Shown: positions 28,328 through 58,701 of the stretch, one piece after another
How positions within the stretch are numbered: position 1 is the first letter of the stretch
Layout of the letters: each line of letters opens with the position of its first letter
Source: an uncultured Fibrobacterota bacterium
GTDB taxonomy: Bacteria > Fibrobacterota > OXYB2-FULL-49-7 > JAEUSG01
DNA length: 64,000 nt
NCBI GenBank assembly: GCA_964590225.1
Contig: CAZPWS010000011.1
Span: forward strand, 4,136 to 68,135
Reading direction: 5' to 3'
Translations under genes and position numbers: made by a program
Notes under the pieces: generated by a model
What the model was told of the DNA's origin: nothing
Seen by the model: the letters and a program-made list of their open reading frames with translations, nothing else
Database searches by the model: none

Positions 28328-30283
28328 ATGGCACTATTTAGCACTATGCTGCCAAAGGCAGCCCTTTCCACTCTTGTTGACCGTTTTCCGGATGGCCTGG
28401 CGATTTTTCTGCACGAAAACAATACCCCCATTTATGTTAATGACGCTTTCGCAGCCTTACTATGCCTATCAAAAGAAGCACTTCTAAGCGGCGACGCAAG
28501 GCTCCCCTTTGCAATACCGCAAAATGGAACCCAGCATATCGATTTTAGAAGTCCACTTCGAAGCATAACTCTTGACTGTAAGGTTTTTAACATTAAGCAT
28601 GAAAACTTCAATTTTAGGGCTATCACCATAAGGGATGTTACGGATGTCGTTTACAAGGAAAACATGCTGAAGGAAAAAGAGGAAAGACTCAGACTTGCTT
28701 TTCAGGGTGCACAAAACGGAATATGGGACTGGGACTTACGAACCGGCAAAATGCATTTTTCGCCTGAGTGGAAGATTATGATAGGTTGCGCGGAAAACGA
28801 AGTTTCAGACCATCCGGATGCATGGTTTAAACGAGTTCATGACATGGATATGCCGGTTCTTCAAAATGCCATACAGGAGCATCTCCGCGGTAAAACACAG
28901 CATTTCAAGTGTCAATACAGAATTCTCCACAAAGATTTCTCCTATAAATGGATGCTTTGCAGTGGCGCCGCAATTAACGGACCCGATAACCGACCGGCAC
29001 GGCTTACAGGTGTCCAAGTTGATATTACCTCACAAAAAGAAAATGAAACAAGGCTCAAGGAAGCACTTGATGACTTGCAATTAGCACTCACATCCGAAAG
29101 GCTCCTGCTTCAAGAGCTTGATCGAAAAAACAAGGAATTAACTGAGCTGTCCATTACTGATGGTTTAACTAAACTTTACAATCATAGATTTCTTCAGGAA
29201 AGATTTGATTTTGAATTCGGTAAAGCAAGACGCTATGGTCAGGTACTATCATGCCTTTTAATAGATATTGACCATTTTAAAAACATAAACGATACATACG
29301 GCCACCAGTTCGGCGATTGCGTACTACGAGATTTATCGCGACTACTCAAAGAAAATTCCCGCGAATCGGATATTTGTGGAAGATATGGAGGCGAAGAGTT
29401 TATGGTTGTATCGTCAATATCTATTGACGACGCGCTGAAATTCGCGCAAAAACTTCACGATGCTGTAGCCTCTTACCCATTTTCTGACGGTACAACAACT
29501 ATTAAGGTTACAATAAGTATCGGCGTTACAGATTATAAAAACGATATAAAAACAAAGCAGGAAATGATTGAGCGGGCAGACAACGCTCTTTATCAAGCCA
29601 AGCACGAAGGGCGTAACACCGTGCGACAATGGAAGGAAAGAAATGACAACGACGACAAAACTATGGACCCCGATGCAATAGAAGGTTTGCGTAACAGTTT
29701 TAACAACCTGACTGAAAAAATGCGTACAACCTACATAGAGTCAACAAACGCACTGGTTAATGCCATAGATGCGAAAGATCACTACACCATGGAACACTCG
29801 CAAAATGTCGCCAATTATGCTGTCGCTCTTGCGAAAGAAATTCACTTGCCAGATAAAACTATCGAGACCATAAAGAACGCCGCCCTACTGCATGATGTTG
29901 GTAAAATTGGAATAGCACAGGAAATACTTCTTAAAAACGGACCTCTTACAAAGGAAGAATTTGAAGTAATGAAACGGCATCCTGTAATTGGTGTCAATAT
30001 TCTTAAAGATGTAAAATTCCTTGAGAAGGAGTTGCCAATTATCCTGCACCATCACGAAAGATTTGATGGAAAAGGATATCCACACGGTCTCAAAGCGTAC
30101 GAAATACCTCTGGGGGCAAGAATTCTCGCTGTGGTGGATGCTTACGACGCAATGACTACAGACAGGCCATACCGAAAAGCGTTATCAAATGAAATTGCTA
30201 TTGAGGAGCTTAGGAAAGGGGCTGGCACCCAGTTTTCAGAAGAGCTAATTGATGCTTTCATAAGAATTATCCGAACTTCATAA
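28328..30283 (+). CDS. PAS-GGDEF-HD-GYP composite c-di-GMP turnover protein
   Basis: PAS-like region (WDWDLRTGKMHFSPEWK), intact GGDEF A-site (RYGGEEFMVV), and an HD-GYP domain (HSQNVANYAVALA ... LLHDVGKIG ... HHERFDGKGYP). Confidence 0.85.
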   Translation: MALFSTMLPKAALSTLVDRFPDGLAIFLHENNTPIYVNDAFAALLCLSKEALLSGDARLPFAIPQNGTQHIDFRSPLRSITLDCKVFNIKHENFNFRAITIRDVTDVVYKENMLKEKEERLRLAFQGAQNGIWDWDLRTGKMHFSPEWKIMIGCAENEVSDHPDAWFKRVHDMDMPVLQNAIQEHLRGKTQHFKCQYRILHKDFSYKWMLCSGAAINGPDNRPARLTGVQVDITSQKENETRLKEALDDLQLALTSERLLLQELDRKNKELTELSITDGLTKLYNHRFLQERFDFEFGKARRYGQVLSCLLIDIDHFKNINDTYGHQFGDCVLRDLSRLLKENSRESDICGRYGGEEFMVVSSISIDDALKFAQKLHDAVASYPFSDGTTTIKVTISIGVTDYKNDIKTKQEMIERADNALYQAKHEGRNTVRQWKERNDNDDKTMDPDAIEGLRNSFNNLTEKMRTTYIESTNALVNAIDAKDHYTMEHSQNVANYAVALAKEIHLPDKTIETIKNAALLHDVGKIGIAQEILLKNGPLTKEEFEVMKRHPVIGVNILKDVKFLEKELPIILHHHERFDGKGYPHGLKAYEIPLGARILAVVDAYDAMTTDRPYRKALSNEIAIEELRKGAGTQFSEELIDAFIRIIRTS

Positions 30284-31143
30284 TGTATATTACCAGTATG
30301 AAGAAGTTTTATTTGATATTGCCATTTCTTCTTTCTGTGATCGGGTGTTCCGGCAGGGGTAAGGAGCTAAAATTTTCCTTTGCGGTTCCCGATACTGTCC
30401 GATATAAAGTCCTTTCTCAGGCAAGCTCACGAACCACTACAGCTTCTTCCACAACTGCCCATTCAACAAGAATCGAAATGACTGTATCGTATTTTGTAAA
30501 AGAACAGCTTGCTAACGGCGACAAAAGGCTACAATTTTCATACGATGATATTAGTTACGAAAATTCACAGGCCGATAAGCATAATACCGATTCCATTATT
30601 AAGGAATTAAAAAGCACACCAATAACTGTAACAATGTCTCCATACGGGGATATTGCCGACGCTACTGGATACGAACAGATACCACGGTTTATGGCGGAAG
30701 ATTTTAACATTTTTACTCTCCTTCTTAAGGCTCTGCCCGTATTTCCTCGTTCGCCTGTACAACCGGGAGCGAAATGGGAAAGGGAACAGGAATATCCAAT
30801 CGAGAATGGCCTTATAAAAGGAAGAATGCTTGTATATAAAAGATTTACACTTATCGATTCTTCCGTGAATGAGAATCCCTTTCTTTCGCTTGTTTCAACA
30901 GACATTTCAATGCGATTTGATGTTCCTGATAATGAAAATTTCTCTATACAACGGGACGGTCAGGAAGAACTTGGCCTTAATGGCCGTGGCGAAATTCGTT
31001 TCGACAGCGACAGAGGCATGGTAACAGATGCAAGAGCGGCCGTATTCGGAAAAATGATAATTGGACTTAAGCATCCAATCACCAAAGAGTCCATTTTAAC
31101 AAAAGTGGAAATTGCTCAAAGTATCCAGGTCTATGAACCATGA
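30283..31143 (+). CDS. Lipoprotein (286 aa), function unknown. The real start is probably the internal ATG at 30298.
   Basis: MKKFYLILPFLLSVIGC has a signal peptide plus lipobox Cys. There is a 1 nt stop/start overlap with the upstream gene. Confidence 0.6.
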   Translation: MYITSMKKFYLILPFLLSVIGCSGRGKELKFSFAVPDTVRYKVLSQASSRTTTASSTTAHSTRIEMTVSYFVKEQLANGDKRLQFSYDDISYENSQADKHNTDSIIKELKSTPITVTMSPYGDIADATGYEQIPRFMAEDFNIFTLLLKALPVFPRSPVQPGAKWEREQEYPIENGLIKGRMLVYKRFTLIDSSVNENPFLSLVSTDISMRFDVPDNENFSIQRDGQEELGLNGRGEIRFDSDRGMVTDARAAVFGKMIIGLKHPITKESILTKVEIAQSIQVYEP

Positions 31144-31865
31144 AAACAAACACTATGGCTATTTCTACTATTGTAATTGTTTGTTTTCTTTTCCACTCCT
31201 TGCAAGCTATTAGCATAAGCGGCACACTGGAAAAAAACACTACATGGTCTTCCGCCGACAACCCTATTATTATTACGGGCAACATTGAAATTCCAGACTC
31301 GGTTGCACTAAAAATCAAGAAGGGAACGATAATTCGCTTCGACGGTTACTATCGTTTACTTGTTCGTGGTTCTTTAGAGGCTGATGGCGAGGCAGGCAGC
31401 GAAGTTGAATTTTCTTCAAATAAAGAGAAACCCTCTGCAAGCGACTGGGAAGGCATAATTTTCTACGGAGAAAAAAGCGGTGGTTACCTAAAGTATTGCA
31501 AGATTCGGCACGCATACAGAAATTTTGTTTGGAAATCTTCGCCCTTTATTCAGTCCTGCACCTTTATAATGAACAATTATGCGATATACTGTTCATATTC
31601 TAAATCTGCTAAGATTATTGACAACTCATTTACAAAAAATAACTTTGCTATCTATTGTGACTATTCAAGTCCGGTAATACAAAAAAACACTATTACCGAT
31701 AACTCTTACGGCATTTACTGTGTTCTCTCATCCGCGCCAATTGTTGGTGAAAATAGAATTGCGGCCAATACAGAGAAAGATATTTACATGGACGATAGTT
31801 TGGGGAAAAATGGTGCAGAAAATGTAAACAACCATGTTTGGGATTTGATGAAAGGTCTTTTTTAA
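31140..31865 (+). CDS. Exported right-handed parallel beta-helix repeat protein (241 aa)
   Basis: Signal peptide. Repeated PbH1-like units (NNYAIYCSYS / NNFAIYCDYS / NSYGIYCVLS). Overlaps the upstream stop (ATGA). Confidence 0.65.
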   Translation: MKTNTMAISTIVIVCFLFHSLQAISISGTLEKNTTWSSADNPIIITGNIEIPDSVALKIKKGTIIRFDGYYRLLVRGSLEADGEAGSEVEFSSNKEKPSASDWEGIIFYGEKSGGYLKYCKIRHAYRNFVWKSSPFIQSCTFIMNNYAIYCSYSKSAKIIDNSFTKNNFAIYCDYSSPVIQKNTITDNSYGIYCVLSSAPIVGENRIAANTEKDIYMDDSLGKNGAENVNNHVWDLMKGLF

Positions 31866-34253: not shown

Positions 34254-35540
34254 TTAGTTTACAGTTATAGCCTTACCCTGTCCTCTATAAAGGTCAAGTT
34301 CACCTTCTAACTCGATTTTTATTACAGTTGCGTATTTGTCTATCTCAGATTCTGGTATGTTTATCCATAGCACACCAGGGATGGGAATTTTCATCCAAGG
34401 CGCTCCTCCAATCATTTTATAATCGAGTTCTCTCCCACTCTTAAGAGCGGAAATCCGCTTAATTCTATTATTGATACCCTTTATAGCAACTGCGTCCCAC
34501 GGGCGATCGAATAGATAGGCATAAATTACAGTACGATCCTTAGATAGTGTAGTTGCCCCATAAAAATGGCCTGCTGGAAGACCGGCAACCGTACCATAAA
34601 CAGCCTCAGAATGATTTTTTATCCAGCCTCCAAGCTCTTTTAATACCGCTACTTGCTCTTCAGGAATGGTTCCATCTGGCTTTGGACCAATATCAAGCAG
34701 CAGATTTCCTCCCATACCAATGCATTCAACAAAAGTTCTTATTATTTGTCGTGGTGTCTTGTAGTTTTTATCACGAGGTTGATATCCCCATGAGTCGTTG
34801 ATGGTCATGCAAAATTCCCACTGCCCTTCCGGAGCTATTATAGGAAAAGCTTGTTCGGGAGTTTCATAGTCACCATGACCATGCATACGAGAGTTAAGAA
34901 TAACTTCCGGCTGCCAACTGTGAAGTAAGTCCCTCAACTCCTTCATTTTCCACTGCTCGGGACTCGGCCACCAGTCACCATCAAACCAAAGTAAATCTAT
35001 TTTTCCAAACTCTGTACACAATTCTTTCAACTGCGCACGATGAAATCTTAAAAACTCTTTCCATTGTGGATCATCACCGAACTTATAGGGGTGAGCTGGT
35101 GAGCAAACGGTCTCTTGGGTCCGTTTATTTACTGGTACCTGAGGTGCATATCCTGGGTGTGACCAGTCAAGTTGTGAAAAATAAAGTCCTACCTGAATCC
35201 CTTCAGCACGAATGGCATCACAATAGGGCGCAACAAGATCCCGACCAGCAGGGGAGCTTTTAACGCAATTTAGATCGCTCTCCTTCGTGTTCCAAAGAGC
35301 AAATCCATCGTGATGTTTTGCGGTTAGTACGGCATATTTCGCGCCCGCTTCCTTAAAAAGTTTTGCCCACTCATTGGGGTTATACTTTTCACCAGTAAAT
35401 CCATCCTTCTGTTTAAAGTAATCTTCGTAGGAGATTTCCCCGTTAAAAAAAGACCACGACTCAGCTATTCCGTTAACAGCATAGATTCCCCAATGGATAA
35501 AAATACCAAGCTTTGCGTCAGTGAACCACGGTTGCATCAT
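34254..35540 (-). CDS. GH29 alpha-L-fucosidase
   Basis: N-terminus WFTDAKLGIFIHWGIYAV ... AKHHDGFALWNT is typical of GH29. 428 aa. Confidence 0.8.
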   Translation of the reverse strand: MMQPWFTDAKLGIFIHWGIYAVNGIAESWSFFNGEISYEDYFKQKDGFTGEKYNPNEWAKLFKEAGAKYAVLTAKHHDGFALWNTKESDLNCVKSSPAGRDLVAPYCDAIRAEGIQVGLYFSQLDWSHPGYAPQVPVNKRTQETVCSPAHPYKFGDDPQWKEFLRFHRAQLKELCTEFGKIDLLWFDGDWWPSPEQWKMKELRDLLHSWQPEVILNSRMHGHGDYETPEQAFPIIAPEGQWEFCMTINDSWGYQPRDKNYKTPRQIIRTFVECIGMGGNLLLDIGPKPDGTIPEEQVAVLKELGGWIKNHSEAVYGTVAGLPAGHFYGATTLSKDRTVIYAYLFDRPWDAVAIKGINNRIKRISALKSGRELDYKMIGGAPWMKIPIPGVLWINIPESEIDKYATVIKIELEGELDLYRGQGKAITVN

Positions 35541-35680
35541 AACAGACCTCCTTTTTATTGTATTTCAAGTATAGTAAATCATCATGAAATTAGCTATGTA
35601 ATATGGCACTTTATTTGTGTAGATTTCTGATATGATGATATCCTATACAGGTAGTCTTAATGTAACTTATATTTCGATCA

Positions 35681-38404
35681 ATGCAGCAGTTATTTGCGCT
35701 ACTCTTTTTAATTTTCTCGTCTGTTATTCTCGGCGATAATGTTTCCGACTCTATGCTTTTATCGTACTTTGATGCATCTCTTTTGCCGGTAATGTTTATA
35801 CTTAACGCAATCCTACTGTTTATCGTATCTGCCTTTTTTATGACCTTAATAGATAGAGTTGACCGCGGCTACTTACTAATAGGCGTTCTTGTCAGCCACC
35901 TAATAATACTGTCTGCAGTAAAAGTTGCAATAACATTAAAAATATTCGTAGCCTGTCCATTTTTGTACTCTTATTCCTATTCATCTAAAATGATTTTATT
36001 TATGGTTTTCTGGACAGTTGTCAATGATATTATTGATGCACGGGATGCAAAAAGGCTGTTCCCACGAATAGCAGCAGGTGGCGTACTTGGTGGAATCACA
36101 ATCTCCTTTGTTGCGGCTATATTTGCCCCTAGCCTCGGCGCAGAAGGGCTTATGGTTGTATGGCTTGCAATTGTTAGCGCAGCTATTCCTCTCTCGTTCG
36201 CGATACATAAAAAATTCATGCCACATTTAAAGGCTACACGCGAGCCATCAACATCATCATCTCTTTTTCAAAGGCTAACAGACTTTCGTTTAATCCGCAA
36301 TGACAATCTGCTACGGCATATGGCGATTATCTATTTTCTTACCTTCATTCTCTTATACGCGAACGATTTTATATTTCTTTCAACACTTAAAGAAAATTTT
36401 CTTTCGGCGCGCAATAGCCTAATAGAAGCGATCGATCCATCGCTGATACTTGGCCTATTAAGTGGCGGCGATGCCGATGCACTGATCTTAAAAAAGGCAG
36501 TGCCAACTTTTCTTGGACTTTTTAAAGGAATAGCAAACACACTTACCTTGATAATTCAGTTTACAATAGCAGGTTTTATTCTCCGTAGTCTTGGAACCGT
36601 AAAAGCTATGCTTGTTATGCCAATTTGCCTCTTTTTTATTTATGGTTCAATGGTAGCGGTCAAGTTTCTTAATTTTCCAGATATTGCCCCACTAGGATAT
36701 CCTTTTTTCGGAAATCTTTTATTCACAACTGTACTATTTGGTCTTACCGCGAGAATCGCGCTTTTCGACGCGATTTATTCACCCAATTTCCAAATTTTCT
36801 TTTCTGCACTAAATAAAGACATTAGGGGAAGAGGAAAAATCCTTATCGAAGGCCTTATAAAACCATTCGCCATTCTTGCAGCCGGACTTTTTATACTTAC
36901 ATTTTATGAATCCCACCCTACTGGTTCGCTTATCTCTCTATTTGTTTTTTCGTTTGTACTAATCGTGATATGTCTTTTAATAAAAAAATCATATACAAAG
37001 AGCATTGCGAAATCGCTCGGAGACGGTAGAGAGGAAAGACTTGAAACCCTGCTGCACTCCGACAAAGAGAAAGAAGAAAACGCCATCCCCTTTCTTCAGG
37101 ACTTTATTGAGGACACCGATACAGAAATAGCTGAATTCGCGACTTTCACGCTAGCTTCTTTGAGTGGAGATGAACCCCCAAAGCTTCTATGGGGACGCTT
37201 CTCTCGAGCGAGTGAGTCTGAAAAAATACACTTTCTTCGTGTCATATTACCGCTAAAAGATATGCGATATATACGGCTCTATGAAGCTGGTCTTTTTAGC
37301 ATCTCGGGCGATGTAACGGCAACATCACTTGAGGCTATTATTAAATTAGGAATACCAATAGATACTTCTCGCATATCCAGATTTGTCAACAGTAATCATG
37401 ACGGAGTGAGAGCGGCAGCGGCAGTTGCACTATGGAAGAATGGTTCTGCAAGCGAAAAACAGATGCTGCAAACTGTTTTGCGTGAGGTGCTATTTGCATC
37501 CGATACATCTTATCTTAAATTTGGTATTAGAGCACTTGCAGCCTCCTCTGATTCTTCGCTCTGGCCCTTGCTTGAAATGGGATTAAATAGAGCGCTACTG
37601 CTCGGTACAGACTATACGAGAATAGCAATTGAGGCCGCCTCCTCCATAAACGATATCAGGGCATGTAGGTGGTTAATGACACAAATACCTCTTTTAGAAG
37701 GAACCGTTCTGGATCTTATTGATAAACATCTTTCACTGTATTTGCATGAGTATCCTGAACTTGTTGAAGAGGCTTTTAATAGTCCATGCGCGGTTCTGCG
37801 AATACATACCGTCAAGGCCCTTGTCAACAGGAGTAAAGACAATGACGAAGCAATTACAACTCTACTTGAGGATCTGCTTGAAACTGAAGTACAACTTATG
37901 TTTCGCTATGCGTCGTACACATCCATACTGCTGCCAGAAAGCGATGGTGAAAAACTTTTATCTGATGCTGTTAACGAGCGAAAAATATCCACCAACTTAT
38001 CGCACTTTCTAATGATATGCGCGGCACTCTATCCAAATTCGGGACTAAAAGCTGCGGCGAATAGAATTAAAAGCATAAATAAACATGTAAGAGCCTCAGC
38101 CCTTGAGCTGCTTGATAATACAACATCAATCCGTCCTGTTAAGCTTTTTCTAAAGCTTATCGACAAACCGGACCATTCGTGGATACGAGATACGCTTCGC
38201 AAGGAGTGGCGAGAGGAAACGCCAACGCGCCTTTCCGTTATCAAAACATTATCTGAAGAGTCTGATGCATGGATACGAATGCTCGCTATTTACGCTGCAT
38301 TGGAACACGACAGAGCTTTTGGAAACACAGAATTTCTCGATGCAATTGACCTAAACAGGGTAAGCGCTCTTGCACTTATGGCGGAGGTAATTGAAGATGG
38401 CTGA
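35681..38404 (+). CDS. TLC/NTT-like (ATP/ADP-translocase family) polytopic membrane domain fused to a ~450 aa cytoplasmic HEAT-repeat array
   Basis: The N-terminal ~440 aa has 10-12 predicted TM helices. WTVVNDIIDARDAKRLFPRIAAGGVLGGI parallels the TLC signature WQFANQIT..AEAKRFY..FG.LANL. The C-terminus carries repeated HEAT/PBS-lyase-like helices (VRAAAAVALWK..., LRIHTVKALVN..., VRASALELLDN..., IRMLAIYAALE...). Confidence 0.65.
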   Translation: MQQLFALLFLIFSSVILGDNVSDSMLLSYFDASLLPVMFILNAILLFIVSAFFMTLIDRVDRGYLLIGVLVSHLIILSAVKVAITLKIFVACPFLYSYSYSSKMILFMVFWTVVNDIIDARDAKRLFPRIAAGGVLGGITISFVAAIFAPSLGAEGLMVVWLAIVSAAIPLSFAIHKKFMPHLKATREPSTSSSLFQRLTDFRLIRNDNLLRHMAIIYFLTFILLYANDFIFLSTLKENFLSARNSLIEAIDPSLILGLLSGGDADALILKKAVPTFLGLFKGIANTLTLIIQFTIAGFILRSLGTVKAMLVMPICLFFIYGSMVAVKFLNFPDIAPLGYPFFGNLLFTTVLFGLTARIALFDAIYSPNFQIFFSALNKDIRGRGKILIEGLIKPFAILAAGLFILTFYESHPTGSLISLFVFSFVLIVICLLIKKSYTKSIAKSLGDGREERLETLLHSDKEKEENAIPFLQDFIEDTDTEIAEFATFTLASLSGDEPPKLLWGRFSRASESEKIHFLRVILPLKDMRYIRLYEAGLFSISGDVTATSLEAIIKLGIPIDTSRISRFVNSNHDGVRAAAAVALWKNGSASEKQMLQTVLREVLFASDTSYLKFGIRALAASSDSSLWPLLEMGLNRALLLGTDYTRIAIEAASSINDIRACRWLMTQIPLLEGTVLDLIDKHLSLYLHEYPELVEEAFNSPCAVLRIHTVKALVNRSKDNDEAITTLLEDLLETEVQLMFRYASYTSILLPESDGEKLLSDAVNERKISTNLSHFLMICAALYPNSGLKAAANRIKSINKHVRASALELLDNTTSIRPVKLFLKLIDKPDHSWIRDTLRKEWREETPTRLSVIKTLSEESDAWIRMLAIYAALEHDRAFGNTEFLDAIDLNRVSALALMAEVIEDG

Positions 38405-38861
38405 TCAAAAGATGGATGCCTTGCGGTTTCTTGAAAATGTAATTTTCCTGCGAAAACATACGCTTTTTTCCGGCTTACAAACTGGAGAACTGAGAGCCCT
38501 TGCCCTCATTGCAAAAGAAATACCCTTGATAAGTGGTGAATACGCAGTAAGAGAAGGAGATGCCGGAGATTCTTTTTTTATTGTTAAGTCCGGTACTCTT
38601 CTTGTTGTTAAGGATGAGGGAAAAATTACTCTAGCCCGCATCGAGCAAGGGGGCTGTTTTGGAGAAATGGCATTATTTGAAGATGGCACACTTCGTTCAG
38701 CAGATGTCAGGGCAGATGGGCCAAGCATACTTCTTTCCTTTCAACGGGAAGACTTTTTTGATGTGCTAAGCCGACAACCGAGAATTGCAATTGAGTTGCT
38801 TGTACTGTTCAGTCGCCGTATCAGAGAACTCAACGAAAAGCTATCTGCGGAGAAATTATAA
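38391..38861 (+). CDS. Stand-alone cyclic-nucleotide-binding (cNMP/CAP-effector) domain protein, 156 aa
   Basis: Canonical cNMP cassette FGEMALFEDGTLRSADVRA. It overlaps the upstream gene by 14 nt and the downstream gene by 1 nt. Confidence 0.7.
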   Translation: MKMADQKMDALRFLENVIFLRKHTLFSGLQTGELRALALIAKEIPLISGEYAVREGDAGDSFFIVKSGTLLVVKDEGKITLARIEQGGCFGEMALFEDGTLRSADVRADGPSILLSFQREDFFDVLSRQPRIAIELLVLFSRRIRELNEKLSAEKL

Positions 38862-40291
38862 TGGGTAAAACTGGATTTGCTACTCTATTTATAGTAGCTA
38901 CAATGTTGCTTAACTGTGTAGCAACGCGACAGGTTTCGATAACGGTTCGAATGATGCCAGAACAGGAAAAATATTTTAAAGAGAACATTCTTTCTCCTTT
39001 CGAAAAGAAGCATAAATGCCGTATTACGGTTAATTCCTACGATCACCCAGCATCATTAGATACAATGCTTATGGATGGTGCAAAAAATACTATTCTTGTT
39101 AAAGTTCCCTTTGAAGCCACCAGGCATGTCGCCGAAACCAAGCTATTAAAACCTATCGACTCTATAGTTAATACTAAGGAATTTACAGAAATTAAAAACC
39201 GTTATTTTCTGATGCAACTCGCGGCTTTTGATGGCCAAACATATTACTTTCCGAGAAAATTTGAAACAAGAATAGTTGTAGCATTAAAAAGTAAAATAAA
39301 CGAAGCTATTAGGATGTGGGGCGGACATCGAGAAGCAATTGATTCGGTACTTAAGACATACAACGGATACGGTCTTCCGAGCGGATATACTTTGGAAGCT
39401 AATCCCGATGAATGGGACTATTTCGATGTATTTGTCGCTGGCTGGTACTGGGCAAGATCTGACTCAACAAAGTTTATGCCACGAATTGCGCATCGAAGCA
39501 AAAGATACTCAGGCACATGCCAAAGACTTGTTGATAGGATTATATCGCTTGGAGGGAACAGTAGCTCAATAATGAAAATGGAAGGACCAGAAACCGATGG
39601 CTCCTTTATATGGGAAGCGCTCTATGCACGAGAAAAAATTTATCATCCATCAATGATCAAAGATGGATGGTCGGGAGTGGACATATGGAATGGTTTTAAA
39701 AAAGGCGAAGTATATCTTGCTTTCATGACACAACTTGATGCCTTTTTTATACACGGCGATGACGCAGGAAAACAGGCTGGTTATATTGCGAATCCTGACG
39801 ATCTTACTTTTGCTGTTATGCCTAAAGGTGTCTCGCTTGAATTATCATCGGAAGGAAAGCCCCTGTTTGTTGGAACAAACTCCGTATCAACTGGTGGGTG
39901 GTGGTGGGGTATCCCTGTAAATTCCCCCGACTATAAACTCTCTTTACTCCTTGCAGAGTGGATACTCGCTTCTGCCAATCAAACAACCGAAGCAAGCAAT
40001 TTTGGAATGATACCAGTGCGAAAAGATATCTTGAGTGACATCGGGTTGCTGTTTGGAAGAACATGGATTGCTGATATCTATAACACTTCACTCAAACAAC
40101 TCGTTTATAACCGTTATAATACAGTTCCTGTTCATGATAAATATGCTGAGGTAGAATCAATTTATCTTGACGCTTTCGACGACATAGTAATAAAGGGAAA
40201 CAACGGTCCAACAAACAGTGGCATGATTTCATACATTGGGAAAATATTGGAACCTTACCGATCTAAGGCATATATCATTTCAAACAAGTAA
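38861..40291 (+). CDS. Periplasmic solute-binding protein (SBP_bac_1-like) lipoprotein, with no adjacent ABC permease or ATPase
   Basis: Signal peptide with LLNC lipobox-like Cys. 476 aa. Aromatic blocks WDYFDVFVAGWYWA and GGWWWGIP are typical of family-1 sugar-binding proteins. Confidence 0.55.
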   Translation: MGKTGFATLFIVATMLLNCVATRQVSITVRMMPEQEKYFKENILSPFEKKHKCRITVNSYDHPASLDTMLMDGAKNTILVKVPFEATRHVAETKLLKPIDSIVNTKEFTEIKNRYFLMQLAAFDGQTYYFPRKFETRIVVALKSKINEAIRMWGGHREAIDSVLKTYNGYGLPSGYTLEANPDEWDYFDVFVAGWYWARSDSTKFMPRIAHRSKRYSGTCQRLVDRIISLGGNSSSIMKMEGPETDGSFIWEALYAREKIYHPSMIKDGWSGVDIWNGFKKGEVYLAFMTQLDAFFIHGDDAGKQAGYIANPDDLTFAVMPKGVSLELSSEGKPLFVGTNSVSTGGWWWGIPVNSPDYKLSLLLAEWILASANQTTEASNFGMIPVRKDILSDIGLLFGRTWIADIYNTSLKQLVYNRYNTVPVHDKYAEVESIYLDAFDDIVIKGNNGPTNSGMISYIGKILEPYRSKAYIISNK

Positions 40292-42150: not shown

Positions 42151-42637
42151 TTACGAGAGTAAACACACCAACCGTTACACATGAATCGGCAAAATTAAAG
42201 ATAAAAAACCGCTCCATAATAATATCGGGGAGGTTGACATCTATAAAATCAACAACTTTTCCATGCATAAATCTGTCGTACATATTTCCCAACCCACCAC
42301 CAAGAATCAGGATAAAACAGGCCATTCCTAGTTTGCCATTATTTCTATCAAAATAATAGAGATATAGTATCATTAATACCGCCAAAACAGAGAAAATCGT
42401 ATAAAACAGCTTTGAGCCAATAAATGGCAGTACGGCACCAGGATTAAGACCGAAAGCACCATTGTAATTATACACAAAAGTAAAACGGACTGCATCACCT
42501 ATTACCTCAATCGACTCGTGCAGCGACATACGCGTAACAACAAGCTTTTTAGTGTACTGGTCAATAGCAAAAATTGTCGCAACACATACTAACAATAGAA
42601 TTGTTTTTATAATATTTTTACGAACTTTAGGGTTCAT
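42092..42637 (-). CDS. lspA: Lipoprotein signal peptidase (signal peptidase II)
   Basis: FNFADSCVTVG (FNxAD motif), four TM helices, 181 aa. Confidence 0.8.
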   Translation of the reverse strand: MNPKVRKNIIKTILLLVCVATIFAIDQYTKKLVVTRMSLHESIEVIGDAVRFTFVYNYNGAFGLNPGAVLPFIGSKLFYTIFSVLAVLMILYLYYFDRNNGKLGMACFILILGGGLGNMYDRFMHGKVVDFIDVNLPDIIMERFFIFNFADSCVTVGVFTLVIVSFFQKRGSRCDKVDCSA

Positions 42638-43649
42638 TAATTACCTTTCTTGCTCTATTAGAGGTAGATTTCAAATTATTAATTATCTCAGTAGATTTAT
42701 TATCGGTACCGTATAAATGGCCGTAAAGAGCAATAATCGAATCACACCTTTCTGCGCTCATTTTATAGTTTTTCTCATCAAACTCCAATTGCGCAAGTGT
42801 GCTATGAATCGAAAGTCGGTTATAGGCAAAATCCATTGGTATTAAATCAACCAAAGGCAGTAACTCATAAAAATACCGCTTTGCAATATCCTTTCTCCCT
42901 GCCGAGATTGCCCCCTTGGCAGCAATCCACAAAAAAGACCTGTTAGTAGGGTATTTTTCCCTAAAAACAGCAAGAAGAGAATCCGCTTCTGCCCATTTTT
43001 TTGAACTACAATAGAGGTTTAGAAGTATTTGCGCAGAAACAATTTTTGAAAATAATCCATATGAAATTGAATGACGCATTTGATTTTCCATGCTGTGGAA
43101 GCCATCATCAACACCAGGTAACCAGCTTACTATTCTTTTCTTGGCATATCTATATACTGTGATGTAAAAGAGGGCATCAACCATTGCAGGATCCCTCTTA
43201 AGAGCTGTTTCAATATGTCCAACGCCTTTAAGCATATTCTTGGCAAAATCATAGTATTGCGCAAATCTTACCTGATGTGCCCCTTTAGTTATAAGTAGAG
43301 AACCAAGATAAAATGGAATCCATGGTGACGCATTATGCTTTCGATAGATACCACGAATCAAGGTTTCAAGTGCGGTTGAAAGGCTATCAAATTCTCGGCC
43401 GTATATGTCGCTTTCATAATCGACCATTGCAGCTTCGTAGGTAATTATCAGACAAAAGTCTTTAATAATTTTTTTTTCGTTACAGTCATTTTTTACGGAT
43501 GAGAAGATTGCTATTGCGCTGTCGTATTCTTGCGTAGCCACAAAATCCATGCCGCGCAAAATATCCGCTTCAATATCTAAAGGGGAAAGATAATGATGAA
43601 CAGAACTCGCGTTAACCGACAAGAAAAGGGCTAAAATGATAATTAACAT
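42627..43649 (-). CDS. Exported alpha-helical (TPR-like) hypothetical protein, 340 aa
   Basis: Signal peptide and helical repeat character. It sits between the M16 peptidase and lspA. Confidence 0.5.
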   Translation of the reverse strand: MLIIILALFLSVNASSVHHYLSPLDIEADILRGMDFVATQEYDSAIAIFSSVKNDCNEKKIIKDFCLIITYEAAMVDYESDIYGREFDSLSTALETLIRGIYRKHNASPWIPFYLGSLLITKGAHQVRFAQYYDFAKNMLKGVGHIETALKRDPAMVDALFYITVYRYAKKRIVSWLPGVDDGFHSMENQMRHSISYGLFSKIVSAQILLNLYCSSKKWAEADSLLAVFREKYPTNRSFLWIAAKGAISAGRKDIAKRYFYELLPLVDLIPMDFAYNRLSIHSTLAQLEFDEKNYKMSAERCDSIIALYGHLYGTDNKSTEIINNLKSTSNRARKVINEP

Positions 43650-55624: not shown

Positions 55625-56656
55625 TTACTTCGTTACTTTTACGCAGAGCTGACCACAAGCCGCGTCAATATCCCTGCCCCTGCTCTTTCTAACTGTAACT
55701 ATTACAGGACTTCTTAACAATGGAGCCATAAACAAATCAACCTCTTTTTCTGTTGGTGGATGAAATTCACTTTTTCTATATGAATCGTTATAAGGAATCA
55801 GATTTATTTTTGATGGTAACCGGGAAAGCCTTTTAGCAAGAGTTGCCGCGTCACTTGGAGAGCAATTTACCCCCCCAATCATCACATATTCAAAAGTAAT
55901 CTTTTCTCCTGTTATTCTCGCATAATTTGCAGCATGTTTTAAAAGAGTATCCATATCAAGCTCATATGCGTGAGGTATCAGAGTCTTTCTAATTTCATCA
56001 TTGGGGGCGTGCAATGAAACAGCAAGCCCAACGCCTCCCCCCTCTTTTGCGAGCCGTTCGAAACCCTCAATAATTCCCACCGTGGAGACCGTTATTCGCT
56101 TTGGGCTTATGCAAAAGGCTTCTTCAGAAACAACAACTTTTATTGAAGCCAAAACCGCATCGAGATTGTCTAATGGTTCACCCATTCCCATATAGACTAT
56201 ATTTGATATTCTCTCTTTCGTCAATAATCTTTTTGCTGCAATTATCTGGTTAAGTATTTCCCCTGTTGATAGGTTTCTTTTAAAACCCATCGATGCAGTT
56301 GCGCAAAGGCGACAACCCCGGGCACAGCCAACCTGAGTTGAAATACAAAGAGTAGTCCTCTTTTCGTCTGGAATAATTACACTCTCTACCGCAAGCCCAT
56401 CCCTAAGACGGAGAAGAAATTTTTTTGCACCATCGCTGGAAACCTGCAAATTCTCAATAACCGGTTCGTCGATATCAAATGAATCCGACAATGTCAATTT
56501 GAGTGCTGAATTAAAATTTGTTATGGACTCAAAATCAGAAACACACTTATTATAAAGCCATGTAAAAAGCTGGCGCGAACGAAATGCTTTTTCTCCTTTG
56601 GTGACAAACCACTCCTCAAGTTCAGCAAGCGGCAAGTCCTTTACAGAAAGCCTCAT
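55625..56656 (-). CDS. rlmN: Radical-SAM 23S rRNA/tRNA adenine-C2 methyltransferase RlmN/Cfr family
   Basis: STQVGCARGCRLCATA radical-SAM cluster motif in an RlmN context and a C-terminal Cys. 343 aa. Confidence 0.8.
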   Translation of the reverse strand: MRLSVKDLPLAELEEWFVTKGEKAFRSRQLFTWLYNKCVSDFESITNFNSALKLTLSDSFDIDEPVIENLQVSSDGAKKFLLRLRDGLAVESVIIPDEKRTTLCISTQVGCARGCRLCATASMGFKRNLSTGEILNQIIAAKRLLTKERISNIVYMGMGEPLDNLDAVLASIKVVVSEEAFCISPKRITVSTVGIIEGFERLAKEGGGVGLAVSLHAPNDEIRKTLIPHAYELDMDTLLKHAANYARITGEKITFEYVMIGGVNCSPSDAATLAKRLSRLPSKINLIPYNDSYRKSEFHPPTEKEVDLFMAPLLRSPVIVTVRKSRGRDIDAACGQLCVKVTK

Positions 56657-57747
56657 TTTTTTTTCTGAAGCGGCACAATATCCGTTCCACCATACATTCC
56701 AATGTCATTCACCGTGCCATCATTATCGTTGTACGCTCTTCCTTTTTCACCAGCATCAATAAGGCGTGAATAGCGGGAGAGCTGCCACGGCTTGTGCGGT
56801 TTCTTCCATTCATTTTCCCTTTTTACCGAAGCGGGAATTGACTCAACAATTGTGCGAGAAAGCCGCTTATTTGCCACATCAGAATCAATTGTATCGGTGG
56901 CGACAGTAACATCCCTTCTTATACTATCAAGATGGCTATTCGAACCCATAAAAACCGGATCAATAAAAATGTTTTCACCGTCGTCGCACGCATCCTTTCT
57001 ATGATTTATCTTCCGTATAAGTCCATACTCTGGCGGACAGTCGATAAGATGTCCGTCGAAATTGCCCCAGAATGCGTTATTTTTGACAACAAAGCGGCTC
57101 AACTTGTCACCAATAATGGCCGCGAAATTATAAGCAATTATATTGCTTGACAATAACGGATTAGAATTTTTTATTGTTACCGCAGCAGCCCGATTGTATA
57201 GCACATTGTTATTTCTTATTTGCGCTATACTGCCATTTTCAACTACAATTCCCTGATGATTTGCCACTATAAGATTATTCCTAATAATTGGAGAAGAATT
57301 CAGCAGTGTTACTGCTCTAAATGCACCTCTGATATCGGTATAGGCGACTGTTCCGGTACTCGCTCTATCATCTTCAAATATAATTCCATACCAAACTGGT
57401 TCATTGGCGGCAGAGTCGGAAATATCAGGACCAATCGAAATCCTGTTATTACTTGCGCCTACGCAATCAAGCCTTCCCTTGACTATAATTGCCGGCAATT
57501 CGCTTTCCTTTGCAATTGGATGGTCAACTGCTACCGTGCATAAAGTGGATTTTTGAATACGAATAACTGTTCCGGGCATAACAGTAACTGTAGTTTTATA
57601 GGGTATCAATACTGTGCCCGTAATCGTATATGGCCCTTTTTGAGGCTGCAATAACAGATCGTTATCTATCACACCACATAATTTTACTTCTGCCCTCACA
57701 GTAGCGAAAATGAACAGCAAAAACGCAATAGCGGCAAAACGGTTCAT
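56653..57747 (-). CDS. Exported right-handed parallel beta-helix protein (364 aa), paralogous at its N-terminus to the 31140-31865 product
   Basis: Signal peptide. PbH1-like repeats (NNLIVANHQGIVVENGSIAQIRNNNVLYNRAAAVTIKNSNPLLSSNIIAYN). The shared N-terminal module is PYTITGTVLIPYKTTVTVMPGTVIRI versus NPIIITGNIEIPDSVALKIKKGTIIRF. Confidence 0.65.
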   Translation of the reverse strand: MNRFAAIAFLLFIFATVRAEVKLCGVIDNDLLLQPQKGPYTITGTVLIPYKTTVTVMPGTVIRIQKSTLCTVAVDHPIAKESELPAIIVKGRLDCVGASNNRISIGPDISDSAANEPVWYGIIFEDDRASTGTVAYTDIRGAFRAVTLLNSSPIIRNNLIVANHQGIVVENGSIAQIRNNNVLYNRAAAVTIKNSNPLLSSNIIAYNFAAIIGDKLSRFVVKNNAFWGNFDGHLIDCPPEYGLIRKINHRKDACDDGENIFIDPVFMGSNSHLDSIRRDVTVATDTIDSDVANKRLSRTIVESIPASVKRENEWKKPHKPWQLSRYSRLIDAGEKGRAYNDNDGTVNDIGMYGGTDIVPLQKKK

Positions 57748-58701
57748 CTAATCCTCCACAGATATATCATTGAGCCTAAACATTGAGGCAGCAAGAATGG
57801 CTGCCACTTTTTTTGCATTTACAGATATCTTTGCGGTCTCTTTAGTTTTGCCCTCAAGCAAAGTTTTTTCATCAAAATTCACCACTTCCATCTGAGCAAG
57901 TTCTGTCATGAAATCACCATTAGAAAACAGCTTATCAGCACCTTCACCAAGCTTTGTAAGCGATAATTCACACATGCCATCTTTCTCACCCTTGGCGACC
58001 TTCACTGCATCGTAAAGAACCCGCAGTACGGTGATTGCCTCAACAGACAATGGCTGACTGGCTTCTATAGAAGAATCCGCAATTTCTCCCCGCTTATAAC
58101 TGGCAAATAGCTCGATGGCCGATTTATCCGGAACCTGAATACGGTTATTACCGATAGCTATTAGTTTATGTCTTTCAATCTCCTTTAAAGCGGCAAGAAC
58201 ACGGTCGTGCGGTAGGCTCATTATTTCCATTATTTCGTTTTTTGCAAATTTTAGATCAAGTTCATCGTGGCCTGATAACGAATCTTCCTTTTTCCTGTTT
58301 ATCATAAGAGTCAACATAGTGGCAATGTTTGCCACAGTGTCCGAATCGAGGGAGGCTCGCACCTTTCTATCGGTATCCCTAAGGCGAGTGCATAATATCC
58401 TAATGATTGCCAAAAACCACTCGGGCATCTGGTGTGATCGCTTCTCAAACTCCTCAACAGAGATAACCGAAGCCTCAACCTCATCAATTGCTTCTACCGT
58501 TGCAGAACGGGAGCGGCCATCAAGCATGGACATTTCACCAACTATGCCACCCTTGCCAATTTCACACAAGTCAATTCGTTGTCCCTTTTCCGTCCTGTAA
58601 ACTTTCACCTTACCGCGGTGTAATAAATACATCTCACGACTTCTATCATTTTCTCTGAAAAGAACTGAACCGCTTACAAAAATTTTATTTACAGGTGCCA
58701 T
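57748..58701 (-). CDS. cNMP-binding domain protein (317 aa) with an uncharacterised C-terminal helical domain
   Basis: N-terminal cNMP cassette (LCEIGKGGIVGEMSMLDGRSRSATVEA). Its stop abuts the start of the downstream beta-helix gene (57747/57748). Confidence 0.7.
   Translation of the reverse strand: MAPVNKIFVSGSVLFRENDRSREMYLLHRGKVKVYRTEKGQRIDLCEIGKGGIVGEMSMLDGRSRSATVEAIDEVEASVISVEEFEKRSHQMPEWFLAIIRILCTRLRDTDRKVRASLDSDTVANIATMLTLMINRKKEDSLSGHDELDLKFAKNEIMEIMSLPHDRVLAALKEIERHKLIAIGNNRIQVPDKSAIELFASYKRGEIADSSIEASQPLSVEAITVLRVLYDAVKVAKGEKDGMCELSLTKLGEGADKLFSNGDFMTELAQMEVVNFDEKTLLEGKTKETAKISVNAKKVAAILAASMFRLNDISVED

Follow-up and report, generated by a model that had tools for sequence, protein, structure and literature searches.

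An operon of Fibrobacterota that joins an NTT-HEAT protein and a cyclic-nucleotide receptor to a predicted sugar-binding lipoprotein

Proteins in which an NTT domain is fused to HEAT repeats (NTT-HEAT) were described by Major, Embley & Williams (2017, Genome Biol Evol; PMC5381601), together with operonic cyclic-nucleotide-binding domain (cNBD) genes lying a few nucleotides (nt) downstream, NTT-HEAT-cNBD fusions and the monophyly of the group. These authors found the proteins in cyanobacteria, chlamydiae, many free-living bacteria and oomycetes, with one sequence from Fibrobacteres, and suggested that ATP uptake could be adjusted by cAMP; the function was given as unknown (PMC5381601). Solute-binding proteins (SBPs), ATP-binding cassette (ABC) transporters, the periplasm and two-component genes are not mentioned in that paper, and elsewhere in the literature that we searched the term NTT-HEAT turned up only in a preprint on chlamydiae and a review of diatoms. 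The argument for TAXI-GltS as a class of SBP-dependent secondary transporters came from gene order and translational coupling, and transporters of this sort known so far are described as elevator-type (PMC12344293). Here we analyse a stretch of 64 kb (the window) from contig CAZPWS010000011.1 of an uncultured Fibrobacterota bacterium, in which an NTT-HEAT gene, a cNBD gene and an SBP gene overlap. We find that this operon is a Fibrobacterota-specific elaboration of the widespread NTT-HEAT/cNBD module.

The three overlapping open reading frames (ORFs) lie on the + strand of the window:

35681..38404, + strand: gene 1, predicted NTT-HEAT protein of 907 amino acids (aa); ORF with an AlphaFold2 (AF2) model of mean predicted confidence (pLDDT) 85 and with homologues
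38397..38861, + strand: gene 2, predicted stand-alone cyclic-nucleotide-binding protein of 154 aa; Pfam cNMP_binding, 2.9e-19
38861..40291, + strand: gene 3, predicted CUT1-type (MalE-like) carbohydrate-binding lipoprotein of 476 aa; SBP_bac_8, 3.9e-12; AF2 pLDDT 86.7

The junction between genes 1 and 2 reads GGAGGTAATTGAAGATGGCTGA. Gene 2 could start at TTG 38391 or at ATG 38397. The ATG sits 8 nt past a GGAGG, and the public gene calls hold a 154-aa product, which corresponds to the ATG start; the window's organism is also represented in sequencing runs SRR13617030-37. Because ATG 38397 is placed in this way and yields the publicly called product, the overlap between genes 1 and 2 is most likely 8 nt, ATGGCTGA. 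Genes 2 and 3 meet at TAATG and overlap by 1 nt. The three genes are a single translationally coupled operon. An earlier reading of the window, made from its sequence alone (the sequence-only reading), had recognised the three ORFs, the 1-nt overlap and a bare cNMP receptor in gene 2, all of which stand; its 14-nt overlap most likely becomes 8 nt, and its 156-aa gene 2 product becomes one of 154 aa.

Gene 1 is predicted to be an inner-membrane protein with a divergent NTT-fold domain of 12 transmembrane (TM) helices and a cytoplasmic HEAT solenoid of ~445 aa:

35681..37021, + strand: N-terminal domain of gene 1 (aa 1-447), predicted 12-TM NTT/TLC fold, N-in/C-in; PDB fold and profile matches
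37064..38401, + strand: C-terminal domain of gene 1 (aa 462-907), predicted cytoplasmic HEAT/ARM solenoid; Pfam HEAT_2, AF2 model and fold matches

The AF2 model (pLDDT 85.1) shows a 12-helix membrane domain, a short low-confidence linker and an all-helical solenoid. HEAT_2 is the sole Pfam match. Pfam and NCBIfam searches for TLC or MFS found nothing, with aa 1-450 lacking a match even at E≤10, and a single-sequence search of the PDB returned 0 matches at E≤10. The fold of the membrane domain, in turn, is best matched in the PDB by AtNTT1 (ranks 1, 2 and 5) and C. pneumoniae NTT1 (rank 3), with E-values of 2.9e-6 to 4.1e-5 and TM-scores of 0.67-0.69; generic MFS transporters reach E-values of only ~1e-3. 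Fold matches of the C-terminal half are importin-alpha, PP2A-A and CAND1. Profile searches of the whole PDB point the same way. A Fibrobacterota-only profile (A8) matched only C. pneumoniae NTT1 (1.7e-6) and AtNTT1 (7.1e-6), and a broader profile to which more distant relatives had been added (A4) gave 2.4e-27 and 6.9e-26 for these NTTs, with the next match at 0.23. Gene 1 itself stays below the gathering score of Pfam TLC (PF03219). Its relatives P0022, P0148, P0147 and P0021 pass it with 68, 48.8, 37.3 and 31.7 bits (cutoff 21), and a Fibrobacterota-only hidden Markov model (HMM) matches these same four proteins end to end with 58-148 bits. The AtNTT1 hallmark motifs FW..AN....AKR..P and LFD...GK..I(D/E) align with the gene 1 family, as when FWTVVNDIIDARDAKRLFP of gene 1 is set against FWGFANQITTVDEAKKFYP of AtNTT1. 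Because its Lys and Arg residues cluster in the predicted cytoplasmic loops, both termini of gene 1, and hence the HEAT domain, are probably cytoplasmic. The TLC/NTT-like domain joined to HEAT repeats that the sequence-only reading had proposed is thus borne out by the AF2 fold matches and the profile searches, and the placement in a generic MFS family that it had considered as the other outcome did not emerge.

In gene 1, positions that are at least 90% conserved make up 20% of the TM helices and 14.5% of the cytoplasmic loops, and 0/55 of the periplasmic loops. Because this conservation lies in the TM helices and cytoplasmic loops and includes charged residues, the NTT domain probably still binds or moves a small charged solute. 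That solute need not be ATP/ADP. Four charged residues of AtNTT1, K155, E245, E385 and K527, were reportedly found by Trentmann et al. in 2000 to be essential for adenine-nucleotide exchange. They align in gene 1 with a hydrophobic residue, Y100, D229 (acidic residue kept) and Ile, so that only the E385 position, one of the four, is retained; both the register and the residue list are uncertain. Gene 1 also carries an insertion of ~22 aa (aa 243-264; 36407-36472), modelled as two short helices in periplasmic loop 7-8 and absent from most relatives in both clades described below.

Gene 2 appears to be a detachable cNMP receptor of gene 1 with an intact phosphate-binding cassette. It matches Pfam cNMP_binding with 69.3 bits (2.9e-19; cutoff 27.5). 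Two short features bear on this pairing:

38658..38714, + strand: predicted phosphate-binding cassette FGEMALFEDGTLRSADVRA of gene 2; G-E...R-S-A conserved
38090..38119, + strand: RASALELLDN motif of gene 1 (aa 804-813), most conserved HEAT patch; candidate docking site for the cNMP receptor

In the cassette, FGEMALFEDGTLRSA, the Gly-Glu...Arg-Ser-Ala positions are conserved in at least 90% of 39 split-type homologues, that is, those with separate NTT-HEAT and cNBD genes; presumably the cassette resembles that of CRP. On the HEAT side, R804, A807, E809 and N813 of RASALELLDN are at least 90% conserved in clade I (see below), and the same motif was also chosen automatically as a search pattern for the whole family. 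In fused relatives the cNBD comes straight after the HEAT domain. The RASALELLDN region is a candidate docking site for the cNMP receptor.

Gene 3 is predicted to be a periplasmic lipoprotein of the CUT1 di/oligosaccharide-binding class. It matches Pfam SBP_bac_8 with 47 bits (3.9e-12; cutoff 27) and begins with an export signal:

38861..38917, + strand: signal peptide and lipobox MGKTGFATLFIVATMLLN-C19 of gene 3; hydrophobic N-terminus ending LLN-C19, read by eye

Cys19 is invariant in 23 aligned homologues and at least 90% conserved in both SBP clades. The AF2 model (pLDDT 86.7) has a bilobed MalE-like fold. Its top fold match is 1eu8 (E 7e-20), followed by 6dtq, 6j9w, 5yse and 7c68, and the 50 fold matches listed are all SBPs, nearly all of them sugar-bound and none nucleotide-bound. 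The bound ligands include trehalose/maltose, alpha- and beta-glycosides such as cellotetraose, sophoro-oligosaccharides and sulfoquinovose. The conserved positions of the gene 3 family are rich in Trp, as in sugar sites. We found 340 homologues, and all named ones belong to Fibrobacterota. Thus, the family-1 SBP lipoprotein that had been read from the sequence holds, through the SBP_bac_8 match, the MalE-like fold and the invariant lipobox Cys. Gene 3 as a nucleotide binder was rejected, since none of the 50 listed fold matches was solved with a nucleotide.

We then looked at how the triad is conserved. Downstream of gene 1 homologues (25-39% identity) come a cNBD gene and then an SBP gene, with different flanks, and dozens of Fibrobacterota genomes have the three genes in this order at 25-56% identity and among different flanking genes. 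The co-location in related genomes on which the sequence-only reading depended is therefore found. A scan for the SBP family in one genome per GTDB species gave at least 80 loci, which we classified with custom HMMs. Nearly all of the 80 are titled Fibrobacterota (Fibrobacteria, Chitinivibrionales, Chitinispirillaceae, Raymondbacteria), and a few carry other or uninformative labels. In the split loci, genes overlap or lie within 40 nt of each other in 25/31 cases for gene 1 and the cNBD gene and in 28/34 cases for the cNBD and SBP genes.

The SBPs form two main clades, and the window belongs to clade I. The order in clade I is split NTT-HEAT, cNBD, SBP. Most Chitinivibrionales and Chitinispirillaceae genomes carry an extended clade I module, in which the SBP gene is followed by genes for a TPR protein (485 aa), an unknown protein (420 aa), an AraC-type HTH_18 protein and a transglutaminase-like protein; the AraC-type protein is membrane-anchored (299 aa, 2 TM). 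Examples are L033:9479-14611, L016, L018 and L023. Five clade I loci (L019, L027, L033-L035) have the cNBD-SBP-TPR string without an NTT-HEAT gene upstream. Three modules hold tandem SBP duplicates in the order NTT-HEAT, cNBD, SBP, SBP, TPR (L017:6215-9413, L021:6475-9419 and L025:130-3031), and their tandem copies belong to different clade I subclades.

Clade II loci form a highly stable cluster with an ABC importer. They begin with ExbB, ExbD, ExbD, a TonB-like protein and an unknown 410-aa protein, and continue with NTT-HEAT-cNBD, SBP, two BPD_transp_1 permeases, a MalK-like ATPase, a 136-aa protein and a TPR protein. Where the flank was long enough (23-25 loci), each flanking family that we checked occurs in 22-25 loci: both permeases and the ATPase follow the clade II SBP in 25/25, and ExbB-ExbD-ExbD-TonB precedes it in 23/23. 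The ATPase carries the MalK OB-fold domain. NTT-HEAT-cNBD precedes the SBP in most clade II loci, usually as a fused protein of ~1,050-1,090 aa, with the two split in three basal loci; in six loci the cluster is otherwise the same but NTT-HEAT is absent. The protein without a Pfam match beside the TonB_C-like protein measures 410-450 aa across clade II and the closing TPR protein 380 aa, and the clusters L052:1-13794, L058:1-12334, L064 and L071 also show a TPR protein of ~970 aa. Cellulose is reported to induce a TonB/ExbB/ExbD operon in F. succinogenes. These loci change the picture of gene 3 as an orphan SBP. In the 64-kb window no ABC permease or ATPase is detectable, as the sequence-only reading had stated. 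Gene 3 is an orphan only in this local sense, for many genomes with a clade I locus also carry the sister-clade SBP with its permeases and ATPase, an outcome that goes part of the way towards refuting that reading on the terms it had set itself.

The two clades are closely tied. The NTT-HEAT tree shows the same two clades as the SBP tree, and because it reproduces them, the whole module was probably duplicated and its parts have been co-inherited since. The SBPs of both clades have the same residue at 70 positions that are at least 90% conserved, and only 3 positions are differentially fixed. The shared positions include W185, W197, W251, W270, W347-349 and W402 and many charged residues. These numbers suggest that both clades bind the same ligand class. 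Both clades are present in 21/51 metagenome-assembled genomes (MAGs), including those of both nearest relatives of the window's SBP (L008/L042 and L009/L083). Only clade I was seen in 12/51, a count weakened by MAG incompleteness and the 80-locus sample. Four genomes without NTT-HEAT at the clade I locus carry a fused NTT-HEAT-cNBD at the clade II locus, and three genomes without it at clade II have NTT-HEAT at clade I. No genome lacked it at both where both could be assessed, in a small sample of incomplete MAGs. This complementary distribution of NTT-HEAT suggests that the clade I and clade II loci work together.

What is particular to Fibrobacterota became clear from relatives elsewhere. 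A profile search of 1.84 billion representatives (clusters at 50% identity) gave 13,087 proteins at E≤1e-30, a count that includes some giant HEAT-repeat proteins. Among the best 150 matches most are end-to-end, ~750-1,260 aa long and above 538 bits, and five are giant HEAT-repeat proteins. We inspected seven non-Fibrobacterota contexts individually. A cNBD lies downstream or is fused in 5/7, one has a MASE10-cyclase gene upstream, and two have response-regulator/histidine-kinase genes downstream. The MASE10 case is L006:4661-9217, a distant relative, in which the adenylate/guanylate cyclase gene lies directly upstream of NTT-HEAT and cNBD, making a cyclase-receptor-transporter trio. A metagenome scan with four non-Fibrobacterota NTT-HEAT seeds found 453 relatives, of which we kept 80 loci. 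Downstream sequence was sufficient at 57 loci, and the next gene is a split cNBD in 21 while the cNBD is fused in 10. The SBP family had 0 matches across the 80 metagenome loci and in 0/7 of the inspected contexts, and the SBP link as a general NTT-HEAT trait was rejected on these counts.

Signalling genes are frequent around the module in these phyla. Pfam searches over 88 co-directional neighbours counted Response_reg 23, HATPase_c 20, PAS 15 and HisKA 14, followed by Beta-lactamase2 12, GAF 6, SpoIIE 6 and FHA 3; no SBP or ABC families are among the 25 most frequent. Seven loci (L099, L106, L108-L111 and L114), outside Fibrobacterota as far as can be judged, share the order NTT-HEAT, cNBD (142 aa) and a ~161-aa protein, mostly with a ~840-1,210-aa protein upstream. 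The proteins flanking NTT-HEAT there are probably a PAS-histidine kinase and a response regulator, because those domains are frequent among the pooled neighbours. In a second set of metagenome loci a gene of the Beta-lactamase2 family lies close by and is probably the ~303-332-aa gene just upstream. Among the loci examined, the SBP partner occurs only in Fibrobacterota, where it is conserved, tightly spaced and co-diverging with the transporter.

Taken together, these results lead us to a tentative preference: the triad may be a cNMP-responsive sensing or regulatory arm of an oligosaccharide-uptake pathway. We favour this reading because the SBP is of the sugar type, because its ligand site is shared with the importer's SBP and because NTT-HEAT is distributed in a complementary way over the two loci. 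The AraC-type regulator in the extended modules and the signalling neighbourhood in other phyla argue for it as well. The triad could have arisen by duplication of a longer clade II-type operon, and in the window's lineage the copy would have lost the ABC genes and kept the SBP. Gene 3 would then report the same periplasmic glycan as the importer's own SBP, or a closely related one. On the cytoplasmic side, the cNMP receptor would dock on the HEAT solenoid and report the cyclic-nucleotide state of the cell. The NTT-like domain would bind or move a small, probably charged solute and would determine how active the pathway is, for instance through control of the ABC importer or of downstream regulators. 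The signal from the SBP would probably take an indirect route to gene 1, since no periplasmic surface of gene 1 is conserved.

The sequence-only reading had likewise preferred a sensory or transduction device to an importer. This preference is partly supported, by the signalling neighbours elsewhere, by the AraC-type regulator and by an SBP that duplicates the ligand-site residues of an importer's paralogue. Its two more specific proposals fared less well. Docking of the SBP onto a conserved periplasmic face of the transporter-like membrane domain was rejected, as the periplasmic loops of gene 1 hold no conserved positions. A nucleotide or second-messenger importer fed by the SBP does not suit a protein that looks like a sugar binder.

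Several points weigh against a sensing or regulatory arm. No NTT-HEAT protein has been characterised, so every functional step in it is inferred. The conserved polar and charged intramembrane residues D19, K103, R358, D363, E390 and K394, together with the NTT gating-loop motifs, are at least as much to be expected of a functioning transporter as of a pure sensor. The periplasmic loops of gene 1 show no conserved surface on which the SBP could dock (0/55 positions), and domain searches of genes 1 and 2 recognised no output domain (kinase, cyclase or DNA-binding). The window's own subclade has the minimal triad, without the TPR and AraC genes. Lastly, NTT-HEAT seems dispensable in cis, because 6 clade II and 5 clade I loci lack it.

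A bolder version, which we regard as improbable, is a three-part "transceptor": the sugar-loaded SBP would act on the NTT-fold protein, directly or via the ABC permeases, and the HEAT scaffold and cNMP receptor would read out its transport or binding cycle. Periplasmic glycan availability would then be coupled to cyclic-nucleotide signalling. In its strongest form, the NTT domain would move a nucleotide second messenger, or it would be the first MFS-fold SBP-dependent secondary transporter. Either would give a first function to the NTT-HEAT family, with its thousands of clusters across bacteria and oomycetes.

Among the rival explanations, the one that survives best is that the operon combines two merely co-expressed functions, which we judge unlikely. 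Gene 3 would feed the MalFGK-like importer of the sister locus in trans, genes 1 and 2 would form a cNMP-gated NTT-type nucleotide transporter, possibly of the cyclic nucleotide itself, and their adjacency would be a duplication relic kept for co-regulation. Much of the comparative evidence fits. The SBP family descends from ABC systems, permeases and an ATPase come after the sister-clade SBP in 25/25 loci, and both loci occur together in 21/51 MAGs, the nearest relatives of the window's SBP among them. The 70 shared SBP positions could include a common permease-docking surface, and tandem SBP duplicates as in L017, L021 and L025 are typical of several SBPs feeding one translocator. Gene 1, for its part, has no conserved periplasmic face and retains a charged cavity and the NTT motifs. 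However, a relic is not expected to remain adjacent, tightly spaced and co-diverging across a phylum, and the cNBD-SBP pair persists in five loci that have no NTT-HEAT. Nor does the explanation sit well with the 12/51 MAGs in which only clade I was seen (a count subject to MAG incompleteness and the 80-locus sample) or with the retention in gene 1 of only one of the four AtNTT1 residues for ATP/ADP exchange.

The same genes could also make up a new kind of SBP-dependent secondary transporter, in which the lipoprotein hands its ligand to the NTT/MFS-fold importer encoded by gene 1 and the HEAT domain and cNMP receptor are its cytoplasmic gate. Gene order and translational coupling are the kind of evidence that lay behind TAXI-GltS (PMC12344293). 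The lack of ABC genes in the window, the co-divergence of SBP and transporter and the purifying selection on the TM cavity residues would all follow. Yet none of the 55 periplasmic loop positions of gene 1 is conserved, and a charged conserved cavity suits an ionic substrate better than a neutral oligosaccharide. The sister-clade SBP already has an ABC translocator after it, no SBP-transporter fusion appears in ~160 loci, and outside Fibrobacterota the module works without any SBP. The known class is moreover elevator-type, whereas NTTs have an MFS-like fold. MFS transporters work by a rocker-switch mechanism. We therefore consider such a transporter a long shot.

An SBP-fed importer of nucleotides or second messengers is very improbable. 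Here the SBP would bind an extracellular nucleotide or cNMP, the NTT domain would import it and the cNMP receptor would provide feedback. The NTT fold of gene 1, the presence of a cNMP receptor and the cyclase beside one distant relative speak for it; against it stand the 50 listed SBP fold matches, nearly all sugar-bound and none nucleotide-bound, the Trp-rich conserved positions, as in sugar sites, and the SBP paralogues in MalFGK-type operons. Chance adjacency or an annotation artefact of three unrelated genes, for which only the unrelated housekeeping flanks could be cited, has a negligible probability and is already refuted by the conservation data: dozens of genomes share the gene order at 25-56% identity although their flanks differ, the SBP and transporter trees have the same two clades, and start and stop codons overlap.

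The surroundings of the triad were also examined:

35541..35680, + strand: spacer of 140 bp between the divergent GH29 fucosidase gene and gene 1; read directly

This spacer is presumed to hold the operon promoter and 5' untranslated region. Its sole sigma-70-like match is weak and lies at 35644-35673, and promoter and terminator scans of the locus found fewer sites than in shuffled sequence, or no more. When the locus was searched with Rfam for riboswitches or leaders, no family emerged and the lone match was a spurious microRNA (E 0.03). The GH29 alpha-L-fucosidase gene (34254-35680 with the spacer) diverges from gene 1 across these 140 bp. It was rejected as a part of the system, as related loci have PriA or other genes upstream instead. 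Beyond it lie genes for an OTCase, an aminotransferase and a PAS-GGDEF-HD-GYP protein; the convergent neighbours downstream are UbiA, an RluD-like protein, LspA, an M16 peptidase and PNPase. The flanking genes are unrelated to transport and of a housekeeping type.

Within the PNPase-M16 peptidase-LspA-RluD-UbiA string, 2.3 kb from gene 3, lies a 340-aa ORF without a Pfam match (42627-43649, - strand). It is homologous (phmmer 1.8e-15) to the TPR protein that ends the clade II ExbBD-TonB/NTT-HEAT/ABC cluster. In two further places of the window (28328-31865, + strand, and 56653-58701, - strand) a nucleotide-second-messenger protein is followed by a NosD-like right-handed beta-helix protein. The first pair consists of the PAS-GGDEF-HD-GYP protein (28328-30283), then a DUF6263 protein and a Beta_helix protein (31140-31865). 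In the second, a 317-aa cNMP-binding protein (57748-58701) has a Beta_helix/NosD protein (56653-57747) directly after it.

These results provide two new handles on NTT-HEAT proteins, the link to a sugar SBP, ABC genes and TonB in Fibrobacterota and the two-component link in other phyla; the SBP link offers a first clue to what this very large family does. Both move the question away from whether such a protein is an ATP importer in free-living bacteria, and both name concrete partners. In Fibrobacterota, the module sits inside what looks like a main oligosaccharide import route, and this route bears on the uptake of cellulose and chitin breakdown products.

How does the triad compare with described systems? 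Genes 1 and 2 share the architecture of the NTT-HEAT(-cNBD) group of Major et al. 2017 and are members of it: an NTT domain is fused C-terminally to HEAT repeats, the cNBD follows immediately downstream (8-nt overlap), and relatives are split or fused. To this group the triad adds a conserved SBP partner. The sequence-only reading knew of no described system with this triad, and that view holds for the SBP partner, whereas NTT-HEAT with a downstream cNBD was already in the literature (PMC5381601). The SBP partner, the ABC/TonB-embedded sister operon and the two-component neighbourhood in other phyla appear to be previously undescribed.

The canonical NTT1/Npt1/Tlc transporters (PDB 9j3j-9j3o, structures of 2025) are the best structural matches of gene 1 and its only PDB profile matches. 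Gene 1 differs from them in being ~14% identical, in lacking a direct Pfam TLC match and in its extra HEAT domain. Its host also differs from theirs, being a free-living diderm in whose periplasm ATP would not be expected. With CUT1 importers of the MalEFGK2 type, gene 3 shares the MalE-like fold, and its paralogues precede two BPD_transp_1 permeases and an ATPase. Gene 3 itself has no permease or ATPase within 64 kb and is translationally coupled to a cNMP receptor and an NTT-HEAT protein instead.

TRAP, TTT and TAXI-GltS systems likewise couple an SBP gene to a secondary-transporter-like gene with no ABC genes beside it. The triad falls outside these classes: gene 3 is of the ABC/CUT1 type rather than DctP, TctC or TAXI, and gene 1 has an MFS-like rather than an elevator fold, no fusions were seen and no periplasmic docking surface is conserved. 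In LuxP-LuxQ, ChvE-VirA, TorT-TorS and MBP-Tar, a periplasmic binding protein acts as ligand reporter for a membrane signalling protein, and in such sensors the SBP can be a paralogue of the importer's SBP or the same protein. The triad resembles the LuxPQ, ChvE-VirA and TorTS type in that a periplasmic binding protein stands beside a membrane protein with a cytoplasmic part. It differs from this type in that gene 1 has no periplasmic sensor domain (its loops are short and unconserved) and no kinase, methyl-accepting chemotaxis protein or cyclase output; the cytoplasmic part of the triad is a predicted HEAT scaffold with a cNMP receptor.

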